Positions 26,689-37,084 of a stretch of DNA of 64,000 bases are shown one piece after another. Under the pieces are notes generated by a model. The model did not search any database. It was not told where the DNA came from and was given only the letters and a program-made list of their open reading frames with translations. Position 1 is the stretch's first letter; every line of letters starts with the position of its first letter. The translations under genes were made by a program, and so were the position numbers. Origin of the DNA: a virus; IMG/VR virus record IMGVR_UViG_3300025312_000002, positions 18,512 through 82,511 of that record, one strand, 5' to 3'.

Positions 26689-28873
26689 TCACCCCTTTGC
26701 CCAAATGATAGATTTTTCAGTTCTGTTCAACTCAATTGCTTCATGCTGGGCTTTTTCTTCTGTAGTGAATGATTTGGCTATTGTGTATTTAAGATAATCA
26801 TATACATGGGTTTTAAAAGCTATGAATCTTTCGGTTTTGCTTTTGTAATGCTCTTTAAAATTAATTTCTTTTTCCATTAGCTTCCCCTTTTCTTTAATGT
26901 GGGTTTAACTTCTTTTCTTGATTCCATAAAAGCAATCATGTCTTTTTGTTCTGACGGATGTTTCTTCCAGTAATCAAACCAGTTCTTCGTTCCGGGAACT
27001 AATTGCTGAAAAGCAATCTTTTCTTCTTCTTCAAGTATTCTTTTGGTTCTCATGTCTTCACCTGTAATCAAGAATATAATTACTAGCTATCAATTGTCAA
27101 GGTACTTTTTCAATTCATTATCTTTAGCAGCAATTCTCCAGGTGCAGTTATTGTGTTTAGGACTTCCTTGAAATACACCGGGCTTTTCAAAGTCAACACA
27201 ACTAAATTCTGAATGGGAATTTACTGATGGAACATTTATTACTTTTATTTTTCCTACTTCTCCTGGCTGAATAACAACTTCTGGGTTTCCTCCATAAGAG
27301 GAGTAATATGCAGTTATCGGCTTTGTTATTGTGACTTTATCTCCCACTTTAAATTTTGTCATTTTTCCTCTCCTTCTTAATTGGTTTAAACATCGTATTT
27401 TCGGGAATCACAATGCTTGAAAGAATCTCTCCCATTATATGTTCCCATATACATGTAATCTCCGGCAAAATTCTTATCCTCCAGATTTATTGTTAATCTT
27501 CCTTCTGCAATAGCTTGATTAAATGCTTCATTTGGATTTCTATTTGTATACTCTTTTTTCATAGACTTCACCTTATTTTTTAGTATATTAATCCAGCTAA
27601 AAAATCTCCTTCTTCTACTGATAGCTTTCCTACAAACCAAGGAAAAATTTCCACATTGTAAAACACTTTCTTTTTGAAGGTAATGGTTGTTTCTTTTCTG
27701 ATATACAAAAGAGCTCCAATTAAAGACTCATAACCCATTCCTGAATCTAAAGCACCCGTTTTGAGCATTTCCTTTGCTTCGGTTTTTAATGCTCTTAAAG
27801 AAGAAAACCCAGACAGCTCTGTTGCTGCATATCTACACTTTCCTCCTCCCCAACAATTTCCATAAACAACTCCTGTTGCTGAATAACTTTTGCTCATTTT
27901 CTTTTCCTCCTTTCTGGTTGATGGTATGCCCCTCTACGAGTTAAAAAACAACACCACATATGCCAACGCACCAACCCCCAGGAGCAAGATCACGCCCCCG
28001 GCAATGTCCCGCCACGAGTATTTTGGCAAGGGGTCCATGTACGGATGCCTCATATTTTTTAGCTCATTTTTTGTCATTGGTATGCCCCCTTTTCAGCAAG
28101 TACCCGTTCCATTAATTCAAGATCCCTCTGCGCTATTTCGATTTGATTTTTCTGCCGCCTTATCATCGCCTGTAATTCTTCCTGTGTCCTGTCCCGCAAT
28201 CTATCAATAAAATGTTTCATGGTATGCCCTCCTTGTCATCGTTTGATTTTCATTCTCCATTATATCTAACAAAAGCTTCTTGTGTTTTTGCTTGGGAAAT
28301 AAAAGCAAAAGGAGGCCAATGCCTCCACCTTCCTAAAATCATTTTTAAGCAAGCACCCCTTGTTTGCCAATCTGTCATTATAGAATATTTCTCATTCATG
28401 TTTTTTGTCCAAACTCTATATATAATTTTCTTCTCCTTTCATTAGCAGTAGGTATCATCCCACAATTTGATTTCATCCTTCTCATCCATTGTCAATGTTT
28501 TTCCCTCTTGGAGCAGAGTGTGAATGTGTTGCAAAACCAGCAATTCCGTTTCCCTTTGTTCTTCTGATTTTTCAATTTCTAGGGACTTTTTTGCTAATCT
28601 CACAAGAGTATCAATAGTTACAAACTCCATTTCATTTCTCCTTTTACATCTCAATATAAAGCGTTTTTAAATAGCTGTCAGTTCTTCTGAATGGATCAGA
28701 CAGATCACCCTCTTTTGATCGGACAAGGCATTTTTCTTTTCATATTGACAAAAGACAGGATTAAAATTCCCGATCGCTTCTGCTCGGAGCACTCGCTTTA
28801 TTGTTTTTATGAGTTCTCCGGGTTCAAAATAGTTTTCTCCTTTTTTCCGAACTTCTACAGTATGGCGTTTCAT
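26689..28873 (-). other. run of small early hypothetical genes (26689-26877, 26877-27071, 27090-27362, 27386-, 27580-27897, 27934-28077, 28074-28220, 28442-, 28667-28873)
   Basis: Tightly packed minus-strand ORFs mostly with AGGAG-type SD. Confidence 0.6.
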
Positions 28874-29349
28874 ATTTTTCTCTCCTTCTCTTTAAGGTTG
28901 GCTTTTCCTTTCTTTACTTTGAAAATAGGATAAGGAGCTTTCCCACTTTCAAACCAATCATCACCAAAACAATAAGTTTTAGGCCCAAGATTATCAGGAG
29001 ACATTAAATCCCCTGCACCAGGAGCACAGGGAGAACAATAAGCACAACGGGTGTAGAAAGGTGATCTGAGTATGAAAATATCCATATCATCATAATCCTG
29101 GGTGCAAATGTAGCCTTCTTTTTCATACTGAAAACCGTCTGCTTCACAATCAGGACACTCGTCATATTGAACATCACCACTACTGTCGGGCTTGTGTTCA
29201 CAGTTTCCACAAATGTAAATAGGTTCTGAACTATCTGCCCACACTTGAAGAACTTCCTTTTGGTTAATAACTCCATAATGAATAATTCCTGTTTTTACAT
29301 CTACATTTGTTGTTCCATTTCCATAGTGATCTACAAGTTCTTTTTTCAT
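28870..29349 (-). CDS. Cys-rich early protein
   Basis: CGNC, CPDC, CAYCSPC; start after extended SD at 29349. Confidence 0.65.
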   Translation of the reverse strand: MKKELVDHYGNGTTNVDVKTGIIHYGVINQKEVLQVWADSSEPIYICGNCEHKPDSSGDVQYDECPDCEADGFQYEKEGYICTQDYDDMDIFILRSPFYTRCAYCSPCAPGAGDLMSPDNLGPKTYCFGDDWFESGKAPYPIFKVKKGKANLKEKERKI

Positions 29350-29430
29350 TTTTATTCTCTCCTTCTCTTTATTGGGAACGTAAATGTTCCAGCGAATTGC
29401 AAAAGTTTCCCTTTGCAATTCAAGCAACAT

Positions 29431-29709
29431 TTACAGACTCTTTAGAACCCAGGACAGGAAATATTTGAGCCACTCAAAACCTTTTGGAGCAGAAACACTT
29501 ATTCCTGTTCTTACTTTTCCATCATGACAAAGTACAGCAGTTGAATAATTCTTCCAAAGAGCATAATTTTTGTTGAGTGTATAATACCTATACAAGATTT
29601 TCCCGTAGTAAATCTTTTTGTGGTTTGCATGTAAAACTATTTTCATTCCTTTTGGGTAAAGAGCTGAACTTATTTTATGCCAATTTTTATTTCTTGCTTT
29701 ATGTTCCAT
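29431..29709 (-). CDS. hypothetical early protein
   Basis: ORF with SD. Confidence 0.5.
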   Translation of the reverse strand: MEHKARNKNWHKISSALYPKGMKIVLHANHKKIYYGKILYRYYTLNKNYALWKNYSTAVLCHDGKVRTGISVSAPKGFEWLKYFLSWVLKSL

Positions 29710-29723
29710 TTTCCTCTCCTCCT

Positions 29724-29936
29724 TTAAAACATTGAATGAAGTAGGTCCAGGAAGTCCTGGGCTTCTTGCTGTGAATTAAAACCCCCAAAATTGAAGCTGT
29801 TAGTTTCATTGTACCAACCTTTAACACTCCAGATTCCGGGATAGGCGGCACTTTCTTCCACAGTAAACTCCTTGAGCTTTGCCAGAACAACACTGGCTGT
29901 TTTCTTTCTGTTCCATGCTACTCTCTGTTTTAGCAT
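29724..29936 (-). CDS. hypothetical early protein
   Basis: Start after extended SD at 29936. Confidence 0.55.
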   Translation of the reverse strand: MLKQRVAWNRKKTASVVLAKLKEFTVEESAAYPGIWSVKGWYNETNSFNFGGFNSQQEAQDFLDLLHSMF

Positions 29937-30017
29937 TTTCTCTCCTATTCTTTTGTTGGGAACATAAGTGTTCCAGGAAAAGCACATCTGTTTCTTGATA
30001 TGCTTAACCCGCAGCAC

Positions 30018-30224
30018 TTATATTACTGACGATTCTTCTAAAATAAAATCAGGACATTGTTTTCTAAGCTTCTTGTGGAATGCTTTTTCTTTCATCGAGG
30101 AAGATGTTTGTATTGGCATTGTACTTCCTTCCTGATAAACAGCAATGTATAATCCCATTTCATACTGCTGAGTAATGAACTTGTTTTTTCCATCAGGAGC
30201 AGGAATAACGGTTATCATGGACAT
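30018..30224 (-). CDS. hypothetical early protein
   Basis: Start after SD at 30224. Confidence 0.55.
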   Translation of the reverse strand: MSMITVIPAPDGKNKFITQQYEMGLYIAVYQEGSTMPIQTSSSMKEKAFHKKLRKQCPDFILEESSVI

Positions 30225-30278
30225 TTCTTTTCTCCTTTCTTGAATCATAAATTTCCCAGGGAAATCTAAATAACATCC

Positions 30279-30722
30279 TTATGGCATCAAACCTTCTTCT
30301 CGAAAACTAAAAACTGCATCATCTAAACCCAAAATGATATGATCATACACACTAATATCCAGTGCTTTTGCAACATCCGCAATCTGTTTGGTCATCCGAA
30401 TATCAGATTCAGATGGGCGTAAGTGACCAGAAGGATGATTGTGTACAAGGATCATGGCACATGAGCAGGAAACAATGCTTGTTTTTATGACTTCTCTTGG
30501 GTAAATACCAGCTTGATTTAATGAACCAACAGCCACTTGCACACAATTCAGCACATTTTGTGCATTTAGATGGAGAACAATGAATTTTTCTACATCAGAA
30601 TCTTGCAATGATCTACAAAAGTTTAGTGTATCTTTAGTAGTTCCAAGAGTTTCTCGATTGTATGGAAAATCCTGCTCCCTAACCATTCTTGTTTGCAACT
30701 TTACAGCATACTTGGTTGTCAT
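30279..30722 (-). CDS. RadC-like JAB domain protein
   Basis: E.F.VLHL, GSLN..YPREV, HNHPSG..PSESD, DHIIL. Confidence 0.92.
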   Translation of the reverse strand: MTTKYAVKLQTRMVREQDFPYNRETLGTTKDTLNFCRSLQDSDVEKFIVLHLNAQNVLNCVQVAVGSLNQAGIYPREVIKTSIVSCSCAMILVHNHPSGHLRPSESDIRMTKQIADVAKALDISVYDHIILGLDDAVFSFREEGLMP

Positions 30723-30803
30723 TTTTCTCTCCTTCTCTTTAGTTAGTCCTTAATTGGACTATCAAGCTCTCTACTCCTCCAAGTAAAGAGCAAGACACTA
30801 CAA

Positions 30804-31640
30804 TTAATGAACCATCTCAAACGCTCTTGCAATAGCAGGTTCCAATTCAGCTCTTCTTACTTCTGAAGTAACATTGTGGGTTACAAACTGTGTTAAAACA
30901 GAATTGAAATCCCACATTGTAGCTTCACCTTGAGAAATTGCATCAGGTAAAAGCAGATTTGAAGAAATCTCCGGCAATTTTTCGATTTTTTCCTTTTCTC
31001 CTCCAGAAAAGGGAAGAGCCTCCCACATAGCTTGATATGTATCAGCCGTCAATTTCTTTTCAGCCCACTGCTTCCACAATCCTACTTGATCGGAATAGGA
31101 TTGCATTCCGTCTTGTATGCTTTTTGTTAATTGTTCGGGATCAAGTGATAGGATGTGACGCTTGGCAAACTTGCTGAAAGTTTTACCTACTGCCATCCCG
31201 TTTGAACACACAATCCTGAAAGCTCCAAACATCGAAATATATTTCCAACCTAAATCGTAGGATGTCCGGATTGTGATTTGGGGGTTAACAAAATCATCTT
31301 TTTTAATCTCATACTTTGTATCACCCATTAAAGCTTTGATTGACATCTTGCCTCCATCAGCAATAATATTGGGTTCAACTGTGATTGTCCCAAATTCAGG
31401 AAGTTTAGCTACAGAATCTTCCACCATTTTGATAATATCTTCATAGTGGACAACTCTGTACTGATCAGAACAAATTCCAAACACAGTGTTTGTGTTCTGA
31501 TCTACAATAGCTTTCTTTCCATCAATCCTGAATTCAGGACGCTTCCCAAACCAAACAGGCTCCAATACAGGATCAGGAAATTCTAGTGTTGCATACCTTG
31601 TTCTTACTTCCATTCTTTGTTCTTGTGTTAAACTTTCCAT
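30804..31640 (-). CDS. DUF932-like protein
   Basis: S..Y.VV, TSYD, FRIVCSNG..H motif. Confidence 0.75.
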   Translation of the reverse strand: MESLTQEQRMEVRTRYATLEFPDPVLEPVWFGKRPEFRIDGKKAIVDQNTNTVFGICSDQYRVVHYEDIIKMVEDSVAKLPEFGTITVEPNIIADGGKMSIKALMGDTKYEIKKDDFVNPQITIRTSYDLGWKYISMFGAFRIVCSNGMAVGKTFSKFAKRHILSLDPEQLTKSIQDGMQSYSDQVGLWKQWAEKKLTADTYQAMWEALPFSGGEKEKIEKLPEISSNLLLPDAISQGEATMWDFNSVLTQFVTHNVTSEVRRAELEPAIARAFEMVH

Positions 31641-31677
31641 TTTTCTCTCCTTTTCTTTAAATTGTTTTTACACCTCC

Positions 31678-31736
31678 AGCAAGACTTTGGACTTGCTTGT
31701 GCATTAGCAGGAATTTTGCTATTCCTGCCCATCTGC
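31678..31736 (-). ncRNA. candidate twister ribozyme (permuted, P5-type-like), copy 1
   Basis: GCA-GA-UGG-[P1 GCAGGAAU/AUUCCUGC]-UAA-UGC-AC-[P4 AGCAAG-U-CCA-AA-GU-CUUGCU]; UGG/CCA and AC/GU pseudoknots. Confidence 0.65.
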
Positions 31737-32458
31737 TATTCAGTTACTGTGCTAAGTACATGAATTGTTCTTGCTCTCCATTTGTTGCCTGCTTTGTGAA
31801 TATCAATTATTCTGGCTTTTACTTTAATAATTTCATCCCTATTCCAGTCAAAAGCAGCTTGATAAGAAGGCCAAAGGTACCAACCGGGATGGCATTCTGT
31901 ATCTGCTGTGGAAAATACTTCACATCCGTAGATTCGATCATTAACTAAAAATTTTCCTGCTATTGGAGAAGTTCTTAATCTATATCCAAACACATAAGCA
32001 TCATCCACTTCTTTGAAATCAGAAACATCAGCATTTGGAATATTATTCGGATCAAGGCAGGTTTTTTCTAAGTTTGCACCCCACAAGTCTGCATTCCGCA
32101 AGTTTGCACCCCACAAGTTTGCATTCTGCAAGTTTGCATTCTGCAAGTCCGCATTCCGCAAGTTTGCACCCCACAAGTCTGCATTCCGAAAGTTTGCATT
32201 CTGCAAGTCCGCATTCCGCAAGTTTGCACCCCACAAGTCTGCATTCTGCAAGTTTGCATTCTGCAAGTCTGCATTCTGCAAGTTTGCATTCCGAAAGTCT
32301 GCACCCCACAAGTCTGCATTCTGCAAGTTTGCATTCTGCAAGTCTGCATTCTGCAAGTTTGCATTCCGAAAGTTTGCATTCTGCAAGTTTGCATTCCGCA
32401 AGTCTGCTTCCGGCACACTAAAAAGCACTGCTCCAGTATTTTTATGCTTGATTTCCAT
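31736..32458 (-). CDS. pentapeptide repeat protein
   Basis: A(D/N)L(R/Q/W)(N/G) repeats encoded by 15-bp tandem units. Confidence 0.92.
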   Translation of the reverse strand: MEIKHKNTGAVLFSVPEADLRNANLQNANFRNANLQNADLQNANLQNADLWGADFRNANLQNADLQNANLQNADLWGANLRNADLQNANFRNADLWGANLRNADLQNANLQNANLWGANLRNADLWGANLEKTCLDPNNIPNADVSDFKEVDDAYVFGYRLRTSPIAGKFLVNDRIYGCEVFSTADTECHPGWYLWPSYQAAFDWNRDEIIKVKARIIDIHKAGNKWRARTIHVLSTVTE

Positions 32459-32495
32459 TTTTCTCTCCTTTTCTTTAAATTGTTTTTACACCTCC

Positions 32496-32554
32496 AGCAA
32501 GACTTTGGACTTGCTTGTGCATTAACAGGCTGTTTCCACAGCCTGCCCATCTGC
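32496..32554 (-). ncRNA. candidate twister ribozyme, copy 2
   Basis: Same core as copy 1; P1 replaced by GCAGGCUGU-GGAA-ACAGCCUGU. Confidence 0.65.
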
Positions 32555-32557
32555 TAT

Positions 32558-32998
32558 TTATTTGTTGATTGGAAAATGTTTTTGCTTTTCCTTTACTGCT
32601 TGGATAAACAGTAAATACAAAGCAATACGTTCTTTTGGTGTGTTGTGGGGGGTGAGTATTTTCTCAATAGAGGAATCCCATTCCTCTATTGAGTGTATTT
32701 CACACCCTATTTTCACAAACCCTTGGGAATATTCATTTGCTATGAATATTCCACTGCTCACTAATATGCTGTTGTTTTTTCTAACAACAACATTATTGCC
32801 AAGCTCAACATTATTGCCAAGCTCAACATAATTGCCAAGCTTAACACCTTTGCCAAGCTTAACACCTTCGCCAAGCTCAACATAATTGCCAAGCTTAACA
32901 CCTTTGCCAAGCTTAACACCTTTGCCAAGCTTAACACCTTCGCCAAGCTTAACATCTACTACATCTCCACCAGGATTCGTGTGCTTCTTGTTTTCCAT
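32558..32998 (-). CDS. hexapeptide (left-handed beta-helix-like) repeat protein
   Basis: V(K/E)LG(K/E/N)x repeats, C-terminal IGCEIH.IEEW; start after extended SD. Confidence 0.75.
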   Translation of the reverse strand: MENKKHTNPGGDVVDVKLGEGVKLGKGVKLGKGVKLGNYVELGEGVKLGKGVKLGNYVELGNNVELGNNVVVRKNNSILVSSGIFIANEYSQGFVKIGCEIHSIEEWDSSIEKILTPHNTPKERIALYLLFIQAVKEKQKHFPINK

Positions 32999-33072
32999 TT
33001 TTCTCTCCTTTTCTTTATGAAGCAGAATTGCTCCAGCAAATGCTCCTCCGAGAAGGAGCATTTAAGCAACAA

Positions 33073-33699
33073 TCATGCAACCGTTCCTTTGTAAATCCCA
33101 TGTACATCCTTAACAATCGTAATTCCATGCAACTTTTTAAGATCATCAAAATGGCGCATAGTTCTCATCCAAAGGTCATAATCAGGTAAAGCATTCTTAT
33201 TCAACCCAACATCATTGATGTGCTTTAGAATGTCCACTTTGGACATCCCTGCTTGTAAACAAACATCAATAGCAGCCGCTTGTGTTCCTTCAACATGACC
33301 AAATCCTACCTTAACACGCCCAGAAGGTCTTCCTGTTCCTGTTTTCGACGCTTTCGGAGCTGATTTTGCTGCTTTCGATTGTAAAGCACATTCCGAAGTT
33401 TTTGCTTTGCAGACAGCCGTCGTATCAGGAAAATCTTTTTCGCAGGCGGAACAGTACTTAGAATCAGGATTATAACACTTAACATCCTTACCCCATTCAT
33501 CCTGCAATTCTTGACAAGCATTACTTGGGCATTCCTGATTTGCAGAATTTTCCGAGGAAGTCTCGTCAACAACCTTTGGAGGCAGAGCATTTTCAGCGGT
33601 TGTAACTGCAAGCTGAATCCGCTCAAGAGTCCAAAACTTACTGACTTTAATTCCAAGTTCATCTGCACGATCCATCAACTTCTTTTTCGCTTCATCCAT
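33073..33699 (-). CDS. hypothetical early protein with Cys cluster
   Basis: ORF with extended SD. Confidence 0.65.
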   Translation of the reverse strand: MDEAKKKLMDRADELGIKVSKFWTLERIQLAVTTAENALPPKVVDETSSENSANQECPSNACQELQDEWGKDVKCYNPDSKYCSACEKDFPDTTAVCKAKTSECALQSKAAKSAPKASKTGTGRPSGRVKVGFGHVEGTQAAAIDVCLQAGMSKVDILKHINDVGLNKNALPDYDLWMRTMRHFDDLKKLHGITIVKDVHGIYKGTVA

Positions 33700-33781
33700 T
33701 TTCTCTCCTTTTCTTTAGTTTTGGAGTATAATTACTCCATCAATTCCTCTATCCCAAAGGATAAAGGAAAAGATGCAATCT

Positions 33782-34498
33782 TCATGCTCCGAGCTGTGCA
33801 GCAGACTTTGAATTTCCATTGCCTATTGGACGTGACAAATTAACTCTGTGTCCATCATCTCGACCTCTTGAATAAGCAGCCGAATCTTTCCCGATAGAGA
33901 TACTTGTCATCTTGAGGTTTGGGTATTGCTCCTTCATAAATGAATCCAACTCCTTACCTTTGACAACCATCAACTCTTTACAATCACTCGGGATAAACTC
34001 TTCCCTACGCGCAAAGAGATCATCCAACCTATCCTTTAAAGTCATAGTCATCCCAAAAGCGTAAGTGTTAGCAGAATTTTTGTTGGAATAATATTTGCTT
34101 TCACTCATTTTTCCAACAGTCCTTCTCAGGTATTGGAAAAAGAAGATTGCAACATCCAAATCACCTTTCGTTCCCAGAAAGGAGAAGCCCCAAATGTTTT
34201 TTACCCATTCAGTTCTTCCAACAATCTTACAATCAAAAACTTTTGCAATACATCCTGCAAGATTGAATTCCCAATTCACTCTGACACCCTCAGCTCCATC
34301 AACATCAATTTTGACAAAGTTCTCCGATTTGTTGATATTAGCTTTGAGATCAGCAAATTCCAGGGAATAATCAGCCATAAGCTTTGCTGCCATTCTTTTT
34401 GCGCTTTCAGCTTCATTGCTATTGGAATTCTTATCATCATTCCCAAGCTCCAACAACTTCAAAACCTTTTGGATCATTTCTTGCTTCTTGTTTTCCAT
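33782..34498 (-). CDS. DUF2786-like protein
   Basis: KVLKLLEL..N.NEAESA..MA.KLM..Y; C-terminal AY.RG..G. Confidence 0.8.
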   Translation of the reverse strand: MENKKQEMIQKVLKLLELGNDDKNSNSNEAESAKRMAAKLMADYSLEFADLKANINKSENFVKIDVDGAEGVRVNWEFNLAGCIAKVFDCKIVGRTEWVKNIWGFSFLGTKGDLDVAIFFFQYLRRTVGKMSESKYYSNKNSANTYAFGMTMTLKDRLDDLFARREEFIPSDCKELMVVKGKELDSFMKEQYPNLKMTSISIGKDSAAYSRGRDDGHRVNLSRPIGNGNSKSAAQLGA

Positions 34499-34696
34499 CT
34501 TTTCTCTCCTTTTCTTTAGTGGAACATAATCGTTCCAGAATTGCTTCATACCTTAGCATGAAACAACTCCGCAATGATTACTTTTGGATGATTTTGTAAA
34601 TGAAATATGCAAGTACATAGCTGATTCCAAACAGAACCAGAAAAGCAAGACTGTAGCCCATAATCACTTTACTGCAAAGCATTGTGTTTTCCATTG

Positions 34697-34876
34697 CTAT
34701 TCTCCCAGGGTCTGTGCAAGGCCATTTATTTTCCGACACTCTTCTTGAACAACAGGGTGCCAAACAGGATTGATTTCTGAGCCAACGACATATTCCTTGT
34801 GAGCCCACATTCTGAATTGTTTTTCCTCTTTGTTCGACAAACTACGAAACATTGGATTATTACTTTTGTATTCCAT
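34697..34876 (-). CDS. small early protein
   Basis: MFRSLS..EEKQFR.WA..WHPVVQEEC; extended SD. Confidence 0.6.
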   Translation of the reverse strand: MEYKSNNPMFRSLSNKEEKQFRMWAHKEYVVGSEINPVWHPVVQEECRKINGLAQTLGE

Positions 34877-35528
34877 TTTTCTCTCCTTTTCTTTTTCATA
34901 AGTTTCCCAGGACAATTACTGTAATTGTCCTTTTGGGATTCAAGCACCTCAATAGACATCCGAAAAGATGTATATTCAAGAACTTGGGATATGAACTCTA
35001 TCTAAGCAGTTCATACCCTTCAGCCCCAAAGAAAAAAGAGAGAGAAAACCCTACCCATCATGTTGTTCCTTCCTTCCGGTTCGCTGCAAGCTCAAAAACT
35101 TTAAGAAAACCTTTGGAAATCCTGTCAATTCAGGCGCATTCTCGGGAAACTACCCTTCCCTGCTTTGGATCAATTTTGTTGTAGGACGGGACTCAGGCTC
35201 ACTGGAGGCTACTGCCTGACGACATAAAAGGGAAACAATGTCATCATCCCCTTATGGGTGCAAGCTGTTTATTCAGGAAAAAATCCTTATTGACAACTTA
35301 CAGAATGAGAAAGACAATTGAAGTGGGCAGCACGATTATTACCTGTTTCACCCTTACTTACATGGGAAAGTGTTATCCTGTATCTCATGTTTTCATGAGC
35401 GCTGATAATAATCTAAAGAGCCTTGACTATGACACGGATAAAGTGTCATAGGAACGTGTCAATCGCACGTCCTATAATTGATAACCTCTTAAAATATTGA
35501 CTATCAATTACCTATCTAATATACGCCC

Positions 35529-35557
35529 TATATATATATAGTCTATTTCGTTGTCAA
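35529..35557 (-). promoter_or_regulatory. strong leftward early sigma70 promoter
   Basis: TTGACA-N17-TATATA with A-tract upstream. Confidence 0.7.
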
Positions 35558-35736
35558 GCGTTTTTTTTACTTTCCTTAGTATTTCTTTTGGAGCTCAATT
35601 ATTTCCTATACATAGCAAGGTTTATGGGCTTCTAATATAACAAATTCCGAACTCGTAAAAACCCCAGCAAAATTACACAATTTACCCTTTGCTCCACTTC
35701 TCGGCCCTGAATTCCTGCTCCAAAACCTGAAAATGC

Positions 35737-35833
35737 AAGCTGCTAACTTATTGATTTTGCTAAGATATAAAATGCATAGCAAAATCAATAAGTTAGCAGC
35801 TTATGAATAAAATCAATAAGTTAGCAGCTTATG
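35737..35833. repeat. 26-bp perfect inverted repeat plus 25-bp direct repeat, each unit containing IHF consensus
   Basis: AAGCTGCTAACTTATTGATTTTGCTA (35737-35762) / complement (35777-35802); AAAATCAATAAGTTAGCAGCTTATG at 35781 and 35809. Confidence 0.85.
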
Positions 35834-35884
35834 TCCAGTATAGCCCCTAGCTATAAAAAATATATCAAAATGCAAAGAAAACGC

Positions 35885-35914
35885 TTGACATCCTATATAA
35901 TAGCATGATAAAGG
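35885..35914 (+). promoter_or_regulatory. possible rightward promoter
   Basis: AAAACGCTTGACA, mirror of the leftward -35 context; -10 weak. Confidence 0.4.
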
Positions 35915-36072
35915 AAAAGCGTAAAAAATAATGATCTTTGACAATAAGCTTTTGATTGCAAGAAACTGCACTCAGAACGATATATTGAGAAAGGAAACAA
36001 GCAAGCTCTAAATGCTTGCAAAAGCCTTTTTACGATACTGTATAAACAAACTATGAGAAAAGGGGAAAAATC

Positions 36073-36414
36073 ATGACAAAAATCGTAAAAAGAGGCGAAA
36101 AAGGGAATTTGATTGTCGTATCAGGTGATGCTAGTGATAATGCGATTAGAGCGTTTTTTTCTAAAGCGTCTGTTACTAACTATAGACTCAAAGAAACCTC
36201 TAAAGTGAGCCAATGCAGTGTCATTAATAACATGATCAAGGCTGAGAAAAAAATTTCTGAGATTGCAACAAAATTGATCAGTATGAAGTTATTCCCTGCT
36301 AATCCTGAAAAGTACGAAGGGCAGGAAGAAACAAGGATTTTTAAAGCTTGCGTGCAAAGAGTCAACACGCACTTAGCAGCAAGCAGAGCAAGGGGAATTG
36401 ATTTGAGAGCATAG
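36073..36414 (+). CDS. isolated basic hypothetical protein
   Basis: 113-aa ORF with SD, own promoter and terminator. Confidence 0.65.
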   Translation: MTKIVKRGEKGNLIVVSGDASDNAIRAFFSKASVTNYRLKETSKVSQCSVINNMIKAEKKISEIATKLISMKLFPANPEKYEGQEETRIFKACVQRVNTHLAASRARGIDLRA

Positions 36415-36422
36415 AGTAAACT

Positions 36423-36460
36423 AGGGTAATATCAAAGATAAATGATATTGCCCTTTTTCT
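36423..36460 (+). terminator. intrinsic terminator
   Basis: AGGGTAATATC/GATATTGCCCT stem followed by T-run. Confidence 0.7.
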
Positions 36461-37084
36461 TTGCCTAAAAAACAGGAAAAGAAGACCTCATAAACACCTA
36501 AAATTAGCAATTCTTGACAACAAACCTAAGCATAAAACAGGGTAAACGATAGAAGACAAAGGTAAGAAAAAATAAAGCCTTTAAGGGGCATTAGAATTGA
36601 TTGCCCTCTGTATTGCAGTGATAGCAAGGATTGTAGAAGGTAAAAAACGAGGTAAATTTGAGTTATCAACAGCCTAAAACAGCCTAAAACAGTAAACTAC
36701 CCTCTTAAAGGCACTTTTAAGGCGCGGGATAGGCTAATATAGCTAATAGATAGCTGCAAAGAAAATAGAGAAAAGCTCAGGTCTAAAAGAAGGAAAAGAG
36801 TAAAAGGGGAAGCATAAGAGTAAAAGGGAATAGATACTGAGAAGAAAAGGAAAGATCGTAAAAGCTTTTGAAGAAGTGATGCTAAGAGAAATGTAAAAGA
36901 GAAAATATAAATGTAAAAGAGAAATGACTAAGCAAAATGCTTGAGAGTCTTTTTCCCCTTCTTTTATCCTGTTCTTCATTCCAGAATAGCATAATGATAT
37001 ATATTTGATAGTCAAGGCAGGGTAAAAAACAAAAAACCTAGTAATATCAATGAAGTTTACATAATGTATCTTATAGGACGCAAC

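Follow-up and report, generated by a model that had tools for sequence, protein, structure and literature searches.

A conserved two-state RNA hairpin family at stop codons between phage early genes, tentatively read as an mRNA processing signal

The DNA stretch analyzed here, called the window throughout (64,000 nucleotides [nt]), comprises bases 18512-82511 of the 82.5-kb phage genome IMGVR_UViG_3300025312_000002 in IMG/VR, which carries direct terminal repeats and is present in sediment, soil, and groundwater DNA sequencing runs. We report that six minus-strand spacers between the early genes of this phage hold one RNA architecture in differing sequences, a long hairpin whose base includes the stop codon of the upstream gene and one of whose strands can instead form a second hairpin, H2. 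The element is real, conserved, two-state, and absent from Rfam. Its defining features are two conserved folds, a fixed register with the stop codon, strand specificity, a length of about two helical turns, and a position in the operon that is common with twister ribozymes. We tentatively read it as an intercistronic RNase III-type processing signal that refolds after the cut to cap the downstream mRNA.

Each element opens with a lower stem of 7-12 base pairs (bp) that includes the upstream stop codon (alignment columns 7-9) and is topped by a central G-G mismatch, with a variable upper stem of 12-16 bp above it; usually four pairs follow the mismatch, then a UU/UU loop in three of the six elements, and then the variable part. 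This single long hairpin is the minimum free energy (MFE) fold of each of the six, at -28 to -34 kcal/mol. In the alternative fold, the 3' strand of the lower stem pairs with five bases just downstream to give the 5-bp H2, which ends 12-16 nt upstream of the Shine-Dalgarno sequence. Because the 5' strand of H2 is the 3' strand of the lower stem, the long hairpin and H2 are mutually exclusive. The middle of the H2 loop is always complementary to the stop codon, including the matching change for one UAG and one UGA.

An earlier note on this DNA, made from the sequence alone, had placed such modules in six spacers of the minus strand, and all six are recovered at 54-72 bits by a covariance model (CM) of the long hairpin, R1, built from these six window elements; the next best match in the window reaches 11.8 bits, and a search of the whole 82.5-kb genome with R1 returned no matches beyond the six (Table 1). 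The short motifs listed in that note recur as well: a stop codon, four variable nucleotides, and UGC stand in five of the six elements (S7 has AGU), UGG precedes the second hairpin in five of the six (S7 has UAG), and UU flanks on the upper stem are seen in three. In S7, the pairs flanking the mismatch are altered on both sides relative to the other five window elements. The note had also proposed two degenerate copies. Inspected by eye, each has kept no more than a short hairpin plus the initial half of an H2-like segment, and neither is matched by R1 at expectation values (E) up to 10.

Table 1. Elements, leaders, and ribozymes in the window, and comparable features at related phage loci
Feature	Location	Strand	Details
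S2	34513-34585	-	CM match 54.3 bits; long hairpin 34581-34526; H2 34536-34521; by fold, stop UAA 34580-34578, mismatch G 34572 opposite G 34535
S3	33715-33789	-	CM match 61.8 bits; long hairpin 33790-33723; H2 33738-33723; by fold, stop UGA 33784-33782, mismatch G 33776 opposite G 33737
S4	33011-33080	-	CM match 54.5 bits; long hairpin 33081-33019; H2 33035-33018; by fold, stop UGA 33075-33073, mismatch G 33067 opposite G 33033
S7	30737-30811	-	CM match 66.5 bits; long hairpin 30812-30746; H2 30760-30745; by fold, stop UAA 30806-30804, mismatch G 30798 opposite G 30759
S9	29951-30025	-	CM match 71.9 bits; long hairpin 30024-29961; H2 29974-29959; by fold, stop UAA 30020-30018, mismatch G 30012 opposite G 29973
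S11	29367-29438	-	CM match 54.3 bits; long hairpin 29435-29379; H2 29390-29375; by fold, stop UAA 29433-29431, mismatch G 29425 opposite G 29389
Degenerate relative	34895-34952	-	5' leader of first gene; no upstream stop codon; sequence and fold
Degenerate relative	30238-30286	-	no upper stem; sequence and fold
Ten near-identical Shine-Dalgarno leaders	28877-34887	-	A-rich, ~21 nt; pattern search; starts at 34887, 34510, 33709, 33009, 32469, 31651, 30733, 29946, 29363, 28886
Twister-P5 ribozyme	32498-32555	-	RF02684, 49.6 bits (gathering score 37.6); stop-codon-to-leader slot
Twister-P5 ribozyme	31680-31737	-	RF02684, 48.0 bits; stop-codon-to-leader slot
Twister-P5, DUF932-found loci	L208, L210, L209, L204		28 matches in 4 of 7 loci: L208 11, L210 8, L209 7, L204 2
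Twister-P5	L211		8 matches
Twister-P5, further loci	L243, L238, L229, L237, L230		50 matches in 5 of 7 loci: L243 13, L238 12, L229 11, L237 7, L230 7
Twister-P5 and this hairpin	L209		7 twisters and 7 hairpins, alternating; spacers 74-117 nt
Single copies of this hairpin	L210 (same as L211), L213		one each
Hairpin variant without G-G mismatch	L208		
Sigma-70 promoters	L212 spacers		four perfect 12-of-12 extended promoters; formal scan
Repeated promoter-like segments	L204 to L207		
Second long-hairpin family	L213 9526-16100		fills four spacers

Conservation of the two folds was assessed in an alignment, A3, of 22 rows (19 distinct) from five phage contigs, from which no rows were removed, so that it includes truncated duplicates of S4 and S2, a degenerate copy in L195, and the doubtful pair L210 8717/L211 13563. 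For the long hairpin, 84.4% of the cells are paired, compared to 61.9% in shuffles and 36-43% when the partner is slid by 1-3 columns, and both-sided changes occur in 13 of 16 pairs; because A3 was fitted to the long hairpin, this count is biased toward that fold. H2, which is absent from the model used for A3, is paired in 91.4% of the cells, compared to 69.2% in shuffles and 25-52% in slid versions, with both-sided changes in all five of its pairs. Since both folds covary, both mutually exclusive structures are conserved, as the earlier note had supposed from the covarying stop-codon segment, and both are under selection.

The structure is specific to the mRNA strand. We folded 17 elements on both strands (six from the window, seven from L209, and one each from L023, L210, L213, and L208), three of which (L209 7693, L209 9150, and L208 4973) were selected visually in listings of the spacers. 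In 16 of the 17, the sense strand folds more stably than the antisense strand, with summed energies of -517 kcal/mol for sense and -371 kcal/mol for antisense, and the predicted stems contain 55 G-U pairs in the sense orientation versus 16 in the antisense, in agreement with the strand preference read from G-U pairs at the outset. These energies and the G-U bias argue for an RNA on the mRNA strand and against a DNA cruciform or an antisense RNA.

The same result bears on a DNA-level explanation, namely, that the elements are attC-like sites, as in the alternative offered by the earlier note, or other recombination sites at the borders of gene cassettes. The genes between elements do differ among related phages, and contigs in four DNA sequencing runs leave the window sequence at 29332-29338, just inside the gene that follows S11, a weak hint that relatives swap genes within the leader and start region. 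These run-off contigs are single and of low depth; among the 32 pieces listed of 99, none differs from the window by more than one letter. One contig joins 29357 to 31287 with 16 other letters between them; the joint and the loose ends are each seen in single contigs and may come from other organisms. Against a recombination site, the structure is the stronger on the mRNA strand and rich in G-U pairs, the run-off points lie in the common leader and start codon, outside the hairpin, and the conserved cores of attC, compared by eye with the consensus, were not seen. Moreover, no tyrosine recombinase (PF00589) was found in the 82.5-kb genome by a search whose control matched 14 of 14 genomes. We therefore regard this explanation as very improbable.

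The geometry of the element is regular across the 17 folded copies, which come from six phage contigs. Below the mismatch, the stem consists of 7-12 pairs (median, 11); above it, the count is 10-27 (median, 13), with 12-16 in 15 copies, 27 in one, and 10 in one. The predicted pairs total 21-27 in 16 copies and 38 in the remaining one. In 15 of the 17, the distance from the start of the stop codon to the mismatch G is exactly 8 nt, the exceptions being 7 nt in L210 and 10 nt in L208 4973. Twisters in the same arrays begin 0-15 nt past the stop codons. The G-G mismatch itself is kept in 15 of the 17 elements while the neighboring pairs covary, a pattern that could also be expected if the widened groove of the mismatch were the binding site of a phage or host protein, either a regulator or another nuclease. 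A second hairpin family, in L213, which by eye has a G-G mismatch of its own in three of its four copies, is consistent with such a site. However, no candidate RNA-binding protein was identified by Pfam among ten early proteins, and a protein site leaves H2 and the stop-codon register unexplained, so we consider it quite improbable.

In the processing reading that we tentatively favor, the elements would act as RNA signals along a single long early transcript. Until the arrival of a ribosome, the RNA would fold as a two-turn hairpin, with about 11 bp below and about 13 bp above the central G-G mismatch, and an RNase III-type, double-strand-specific host nuclease would cut at or near the mismatch. 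The upper hairpin would stay as the 3' end of the upstream mRNA, while the freed 3' strand of the lower stem, starting with a conserved GG, would refold into the 5-bp H2, which would cap the downstream mRNA at its extreme 5' end, 12-16 nt ahead of the ribosome-binding site. The two-turn geometry, as predicted by folding, fits RNase III substrates. Those of the Escherichia coli enzyme are described as typically spanning two helical turns, internal loops or bulges as able to restrict cutting to one phosphodiester, which leaves a protective 3' hairpin, and the shortest reactive length from cut to loop as 11 bp (PMC1540722). A cut at the mismatch, the position assumed here, would satisfy the substrate rules given in that source and would place the conserved GG first on the downstream RNA, as the first two pairs of H2. 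Deleting the 5' strand in silico as far as the nucleotide preceding the mismatch yielded H2 in 13 of 15 folds, where it stacks directly on the upper hairpin; of the other two, L213 9149 did not form H2, and S9 was mis-anchored by the script.

The register suggests a part for the ribosome that terminates translation of the upstream gene. The bacterial mRNA channel is described as extending 11 nt past the first P-site nucleotide, and stem-loops 11-12 nt downstream as sitting at the channel entry, where they can hinder A-site binding (PMC7282821). When the stop codon occupies the A site, the mismatch G falls at +12, the mouth of the channel, and the first upper-stem pair is at +13. From the fixed 8-nt register and the length of the channel, it follows that a terminating ribosome would melt the entire lower stem and none of the upper one, and we infer that the two tiers are matched to it. 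In unwinding only the lower stem, this ribosome would separate the products of the cut and let H2 form; without it, the cut products would stay joined by 7-12 pairs. A fuller version, in which translation of the upstream gene times both the severing and the H2 cap as ribosome-gated punctuation, with the cut possibly catalyzed by the RNA itself as a new class that replaces twisters, seems to us rather unlikely.

The same register is also what would be expected of a termination-coupled switch that works without any cut, in which the ribosome opens the lower stem, H2 forms, and the refolding itself is the function; such a switch might hand ribosomes on, slow termination, or shield the spacer from Rho or single-strand nucleases. 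In its favor, the stop register is fixed in 15 of 17 elements, unlike the loose placement of the twisters, both folds covary, and the upper stem starts 12-13 nt past the first P-site nucleotide, where stem-loops are described as hindering the A site (PMC7282821). Yet the ribosome-binding site is exposed in both folds, neither of which hides the Shine-Dalgarno sequence or the start codon, and the H2 3' strand is not consistently complementary to the Shine-Dalgarno sequence across the family. In addition, the slot is filled elsewhere by ribozymes or promoters that create 5' ends, and a pure switch creates none. A switch of this kind is, in our judgment, unlikely. An anti-Shine-Dalgarno switch was rejected: the H2 3' strand pairs weakly with the Shine-Dalgarno sequence in two of six window folds and is not complementary to it family-wide.

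Several points weigh against a cut-and-refold processing signal. That a cut occurs, which nuclease makes it, where it falls, and how the ribosome takes part are all what we infer. RNase III is assumed to be present in the host, and a genome search detected no phage-encoded RNase III. The T7 sites have internal loops, irregularities larger than a 1x1 G-G mismatch. The part of the mismatch in cutting is putative, and it is replaced by a G-C pair in L209 6454 and by G-U in L208 4973, where the spacing to the stop codon is also altered. In L209 8135, the MFE fold of a longer construct is already H2, not the lower stem. If host RNase III sufficed, the ribozymes kept in the same operons would be hard to account for, and the fixed register could reflect the joint inheritance of stop codon and element as one module. 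The earlier note had suggested a processing signal or a translation-coupled switch; what stands of this is an element acting at the RNA level, supported by covariation, strand specificity, and the slot used by twisters, and the choice between the two is graded above.

The setting of the elements in the operon links them to ribozymes. The sign of the GC skew changes near 36 kb, and from ~34.9 kb a series of small genes runs leftward. The elements are intercistronic, extending from stop codon to leader in a polycistronic early mRNA of the phage, and one Shine-Dalgarno leader follows each element or tight junction in the operon; the leader pattern has 26 matches in the window, compared to 11.8 expected, ten of them in this operon. 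Eight of the 11 junctions from 34876 to 28870, as read from the sequence and the list of open reading frames (ORFs), hold either the hairpin or a twister, so that the earlier suggestion that nearly every early gene would receive a processed end is roughly borne out, provided that these elements are indeed cut. Neither a promoter-like nor a terminator-like site on the gene strand was found by scanning the six spacers. An intrinsic terminator was accordingly rejected, since none of the 12 terminator-like sites in 28800-36500 lies within the six spacers, and a promoter, whether sigma-70 or sigma-54, was unsupported both by the scan and by inspection by eye.

Relatives of the phage supply the comparison. 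Ten IMG/VR loci were gathered through the DUF932 protein, which has many relatives on contigs of 80-93 kb, and more were gathered through the DUF2786 protein. The closer protein relatives share 60-72% identity and lie on contigs of up to 87 kb. In L209, where the hairpin and twister-P5 alternate, each spacer runs from stop codon to leader; five of its hairpins match R1, and two were recognized by eye. The junction before the DUF932 gene holds a twister in five phages (this window, L204, L208, L209, and L210), a perfect sigma-70 promoter in L212, and the other long hairpin in L213. Twisters and promoters alike give rise to fresh mRNA 5' ends, and on the simplest view the hairpin does the same by being cut.

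That the cut is made by the element itself, as a new class of self-cleaving ribozyme, is a further possibility; in its core, the two hairpins would join the 5' strand and the H2 loop in a pseudoknot centered on the conserved nucleotides G, C, U, G, and G. The element matches twister-P5 in slot and size and alternates with it in single arrays, it has a few near-invariant nucleotides amid variable stems, and the pairing of the 5' strand with the H2 loop makes an H-type pseudoknot topologically possible. Searching beside known ribozymes is described as having yielded three ribozyme classes (PMC5737381), and a circular permutation of a known class would evade the Rfam models. Set against these points, the conserved positions outside helices number only about five, the terminal loops of the upper stems are not conserved, covariation is seen in those pairs with which a pseudoknot would be incompatible (columns 2-4 with 84-86, and 14 with 75), and no Rfam ribozyme family except twister gives a match at E up to 10. 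The regular two-turn length also better suits a protein that measures helices, which suggests such a protein over self-cleavage. We consider a new ribozyme class improbable.

Comparison with catalogs placed the element outside described families. A search with Rfam 15 (4,227 models) matched only the two twister-P5 ribozymes in the operon, and the six elements have no match to the twister models (clan CL00120), even at E up to 10. At that threshold, the sole overlap of any Rfam match with the six is a microRNA (miRNA)-precursor match over S9 at chance level (20.1 bits versus a gathering score of 98; E, 2.4). Literature searches did not find a published description of the hairpin family. A catalog of more than 10,000 candidate viral structured RNAs is reported (PMC10690425), and it may include this family among its unnamed candidates.

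Searches for further copies were mostly empty. A pattern for H2 occurs in at least 117 IMG/VR stretches, and among the 80 listed only L023 has multiple copies; the others are assumed, from the pattern and ahead of any model check, to be chance single matches. A tighter pattern gave 14 metagenome stretches, with true elements only in L192, which lies on the same contig as L023; weak matches in L182, L186, L188, and L189 proved to be an unrelated palindrome and were discarded. No element was found at E up to 1 in 61 terminase-relative loci, at E up to 0.1 in the whole records of five relatives (G002-G006), or at E up to 0.1 with default filters in 30 DUF2786-found loci, and three metagenome-assembled genome loci had neither the element nor an Rfam match. 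Phage GenBank records searched with blastn in distant mode gave no match to the 6-kb region, and a 22-nt leader had no match in IMG/VR. From these results, the sub-family appears narrow, comprising G000, G001, G007, G008/G009, and G011, together with a variant in G006.

The early RNase III sites of phage T7 are named R0.3 to R1.3, and R1.1 is a model substrate. Like them, the element lies between the cistrons of a phage early polycistronic mRNA, forms a hairpin of about two turns with a mid-helix irregularity, and would leave a 3' hairpin on the upstream message. Unlike them, it has a single G-G mismatch in place of an internal loop, it carries the upstream stop codon in its lower stem at a fixed register, and the 3' strand of that stem has a conserved, covarying alternative partner in H2; its cutting, moreover, is a prediction. 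Compared to twister-P5 (RF02684), it has the same slot from stop codon to A-rich leader, a similar length, and a place in the same arrays and phage group, and it would plausibly lead to the same result, messages of one gene each that have hairpins close to their two new ends; it differs in having no match to the twister model in sequence or structure, far fewer conserved unpaired nucleotides, two exclusive folds, and a fixed stop-codon register. Sites for Bs-RNase III reportedly occur in the early mRNA of the Bacillus phage SP82, in work attributed to Panganiban and Whiteley in 1983 and cited in PMC4838370; to go by that report, they too are repeated related hairpins at which phage early mRNA is cut, and the SP82 host is said to use strong Shine-Dalgarno sites. 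Clustered hammerhead ribozymes flanking prophage genes are described in PMC3088659 as proposed to cut long phage transcripts into gene-length mRNAs, and the element resembles these in placing multiple processing elements around single genes or short blocks. The hammerheads, however, are proven ribozymes, and the element has neither a hammerhead core nor an Rfam match.

Other features of the operon and of the related loci were recorded in passing. Pfam names five of the ten scanned early proteins (DUF2786/DUF7168, hexapeptide-repeat, pentapeptide-repeat, and RadC), and the eleventh early gene encodes a DUF932 protein (PF06067). At window positions 31736-32998 on the minus strand, the adjacent genes for the pentapeptide- and hexapeptide-repeat proteins are each flanked by putative processing elements. 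DNA mimicry is common among pentapeptide proteins, and both of these early genes may serve in anti-defense. At 35738-35800, the divergent region between the two gene arms holds a near-perfect hairpin with 26 predicted pairs, two of them non-standard, and a chance miRNA-like Rfam match (32.5 bits versus a gathering score of 80); possible roles for this hairpin are those of operator, origin, or bidirectional terminator. In the genome bases that precede the window, L203 12500-14500 on the minus strand contains a second family of structured spacers between small genes, which start at the stop codon and end in a complementary segment just before the next gene and which have no Rfam match at E up to 0.1.

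Among the relatives, the second long-hairpin family of L213 has a conserved middle that is purine-rich on one side and pyrimidine-rich on the other and is off-register with the stop codon. The spacers of L204 2993-8112, L206, and L207 hold repeats of ~60 nt in which a -35-like box and an extended -10-like box accompany a small embedded hairpin, and these look like per-gene early promoters in the slots that twisters occupy in sister phages. L208 8388-8496 has a twister-like start and end with a long insertion between them and no Rfam call; it may be a disrupted or split twister. In L023 1-2400, upstream of the element array, ~2.4 kb lacks long ORFs and has numerous pyrimidine-rich tracts and short direct repeats.

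What twisters do biologically in bacteria and phages is described as still unsettled, with the cutting of transcripts listed as a suggestion (PMC6765202). Because a twister, a plain promoter, and the two-state hairpin fill the same junctions in related phages, all three probably have one purpose, which is to give each small early gene (DUF2786, pentapeptide, DUF932, RadC, and others) a message end of its own; the hairpin, accordingly, probably marks the sites at which the early message is cut and protects the resulting ends. The family offers a simple system for the linkage of RNA cutting, refolding, and translation termination, and it could show whether a mid-helix G-G mismatch in a two-turn helix steers a nuclease. 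Its members may also serve as compact gene insulators in synthetic operons.

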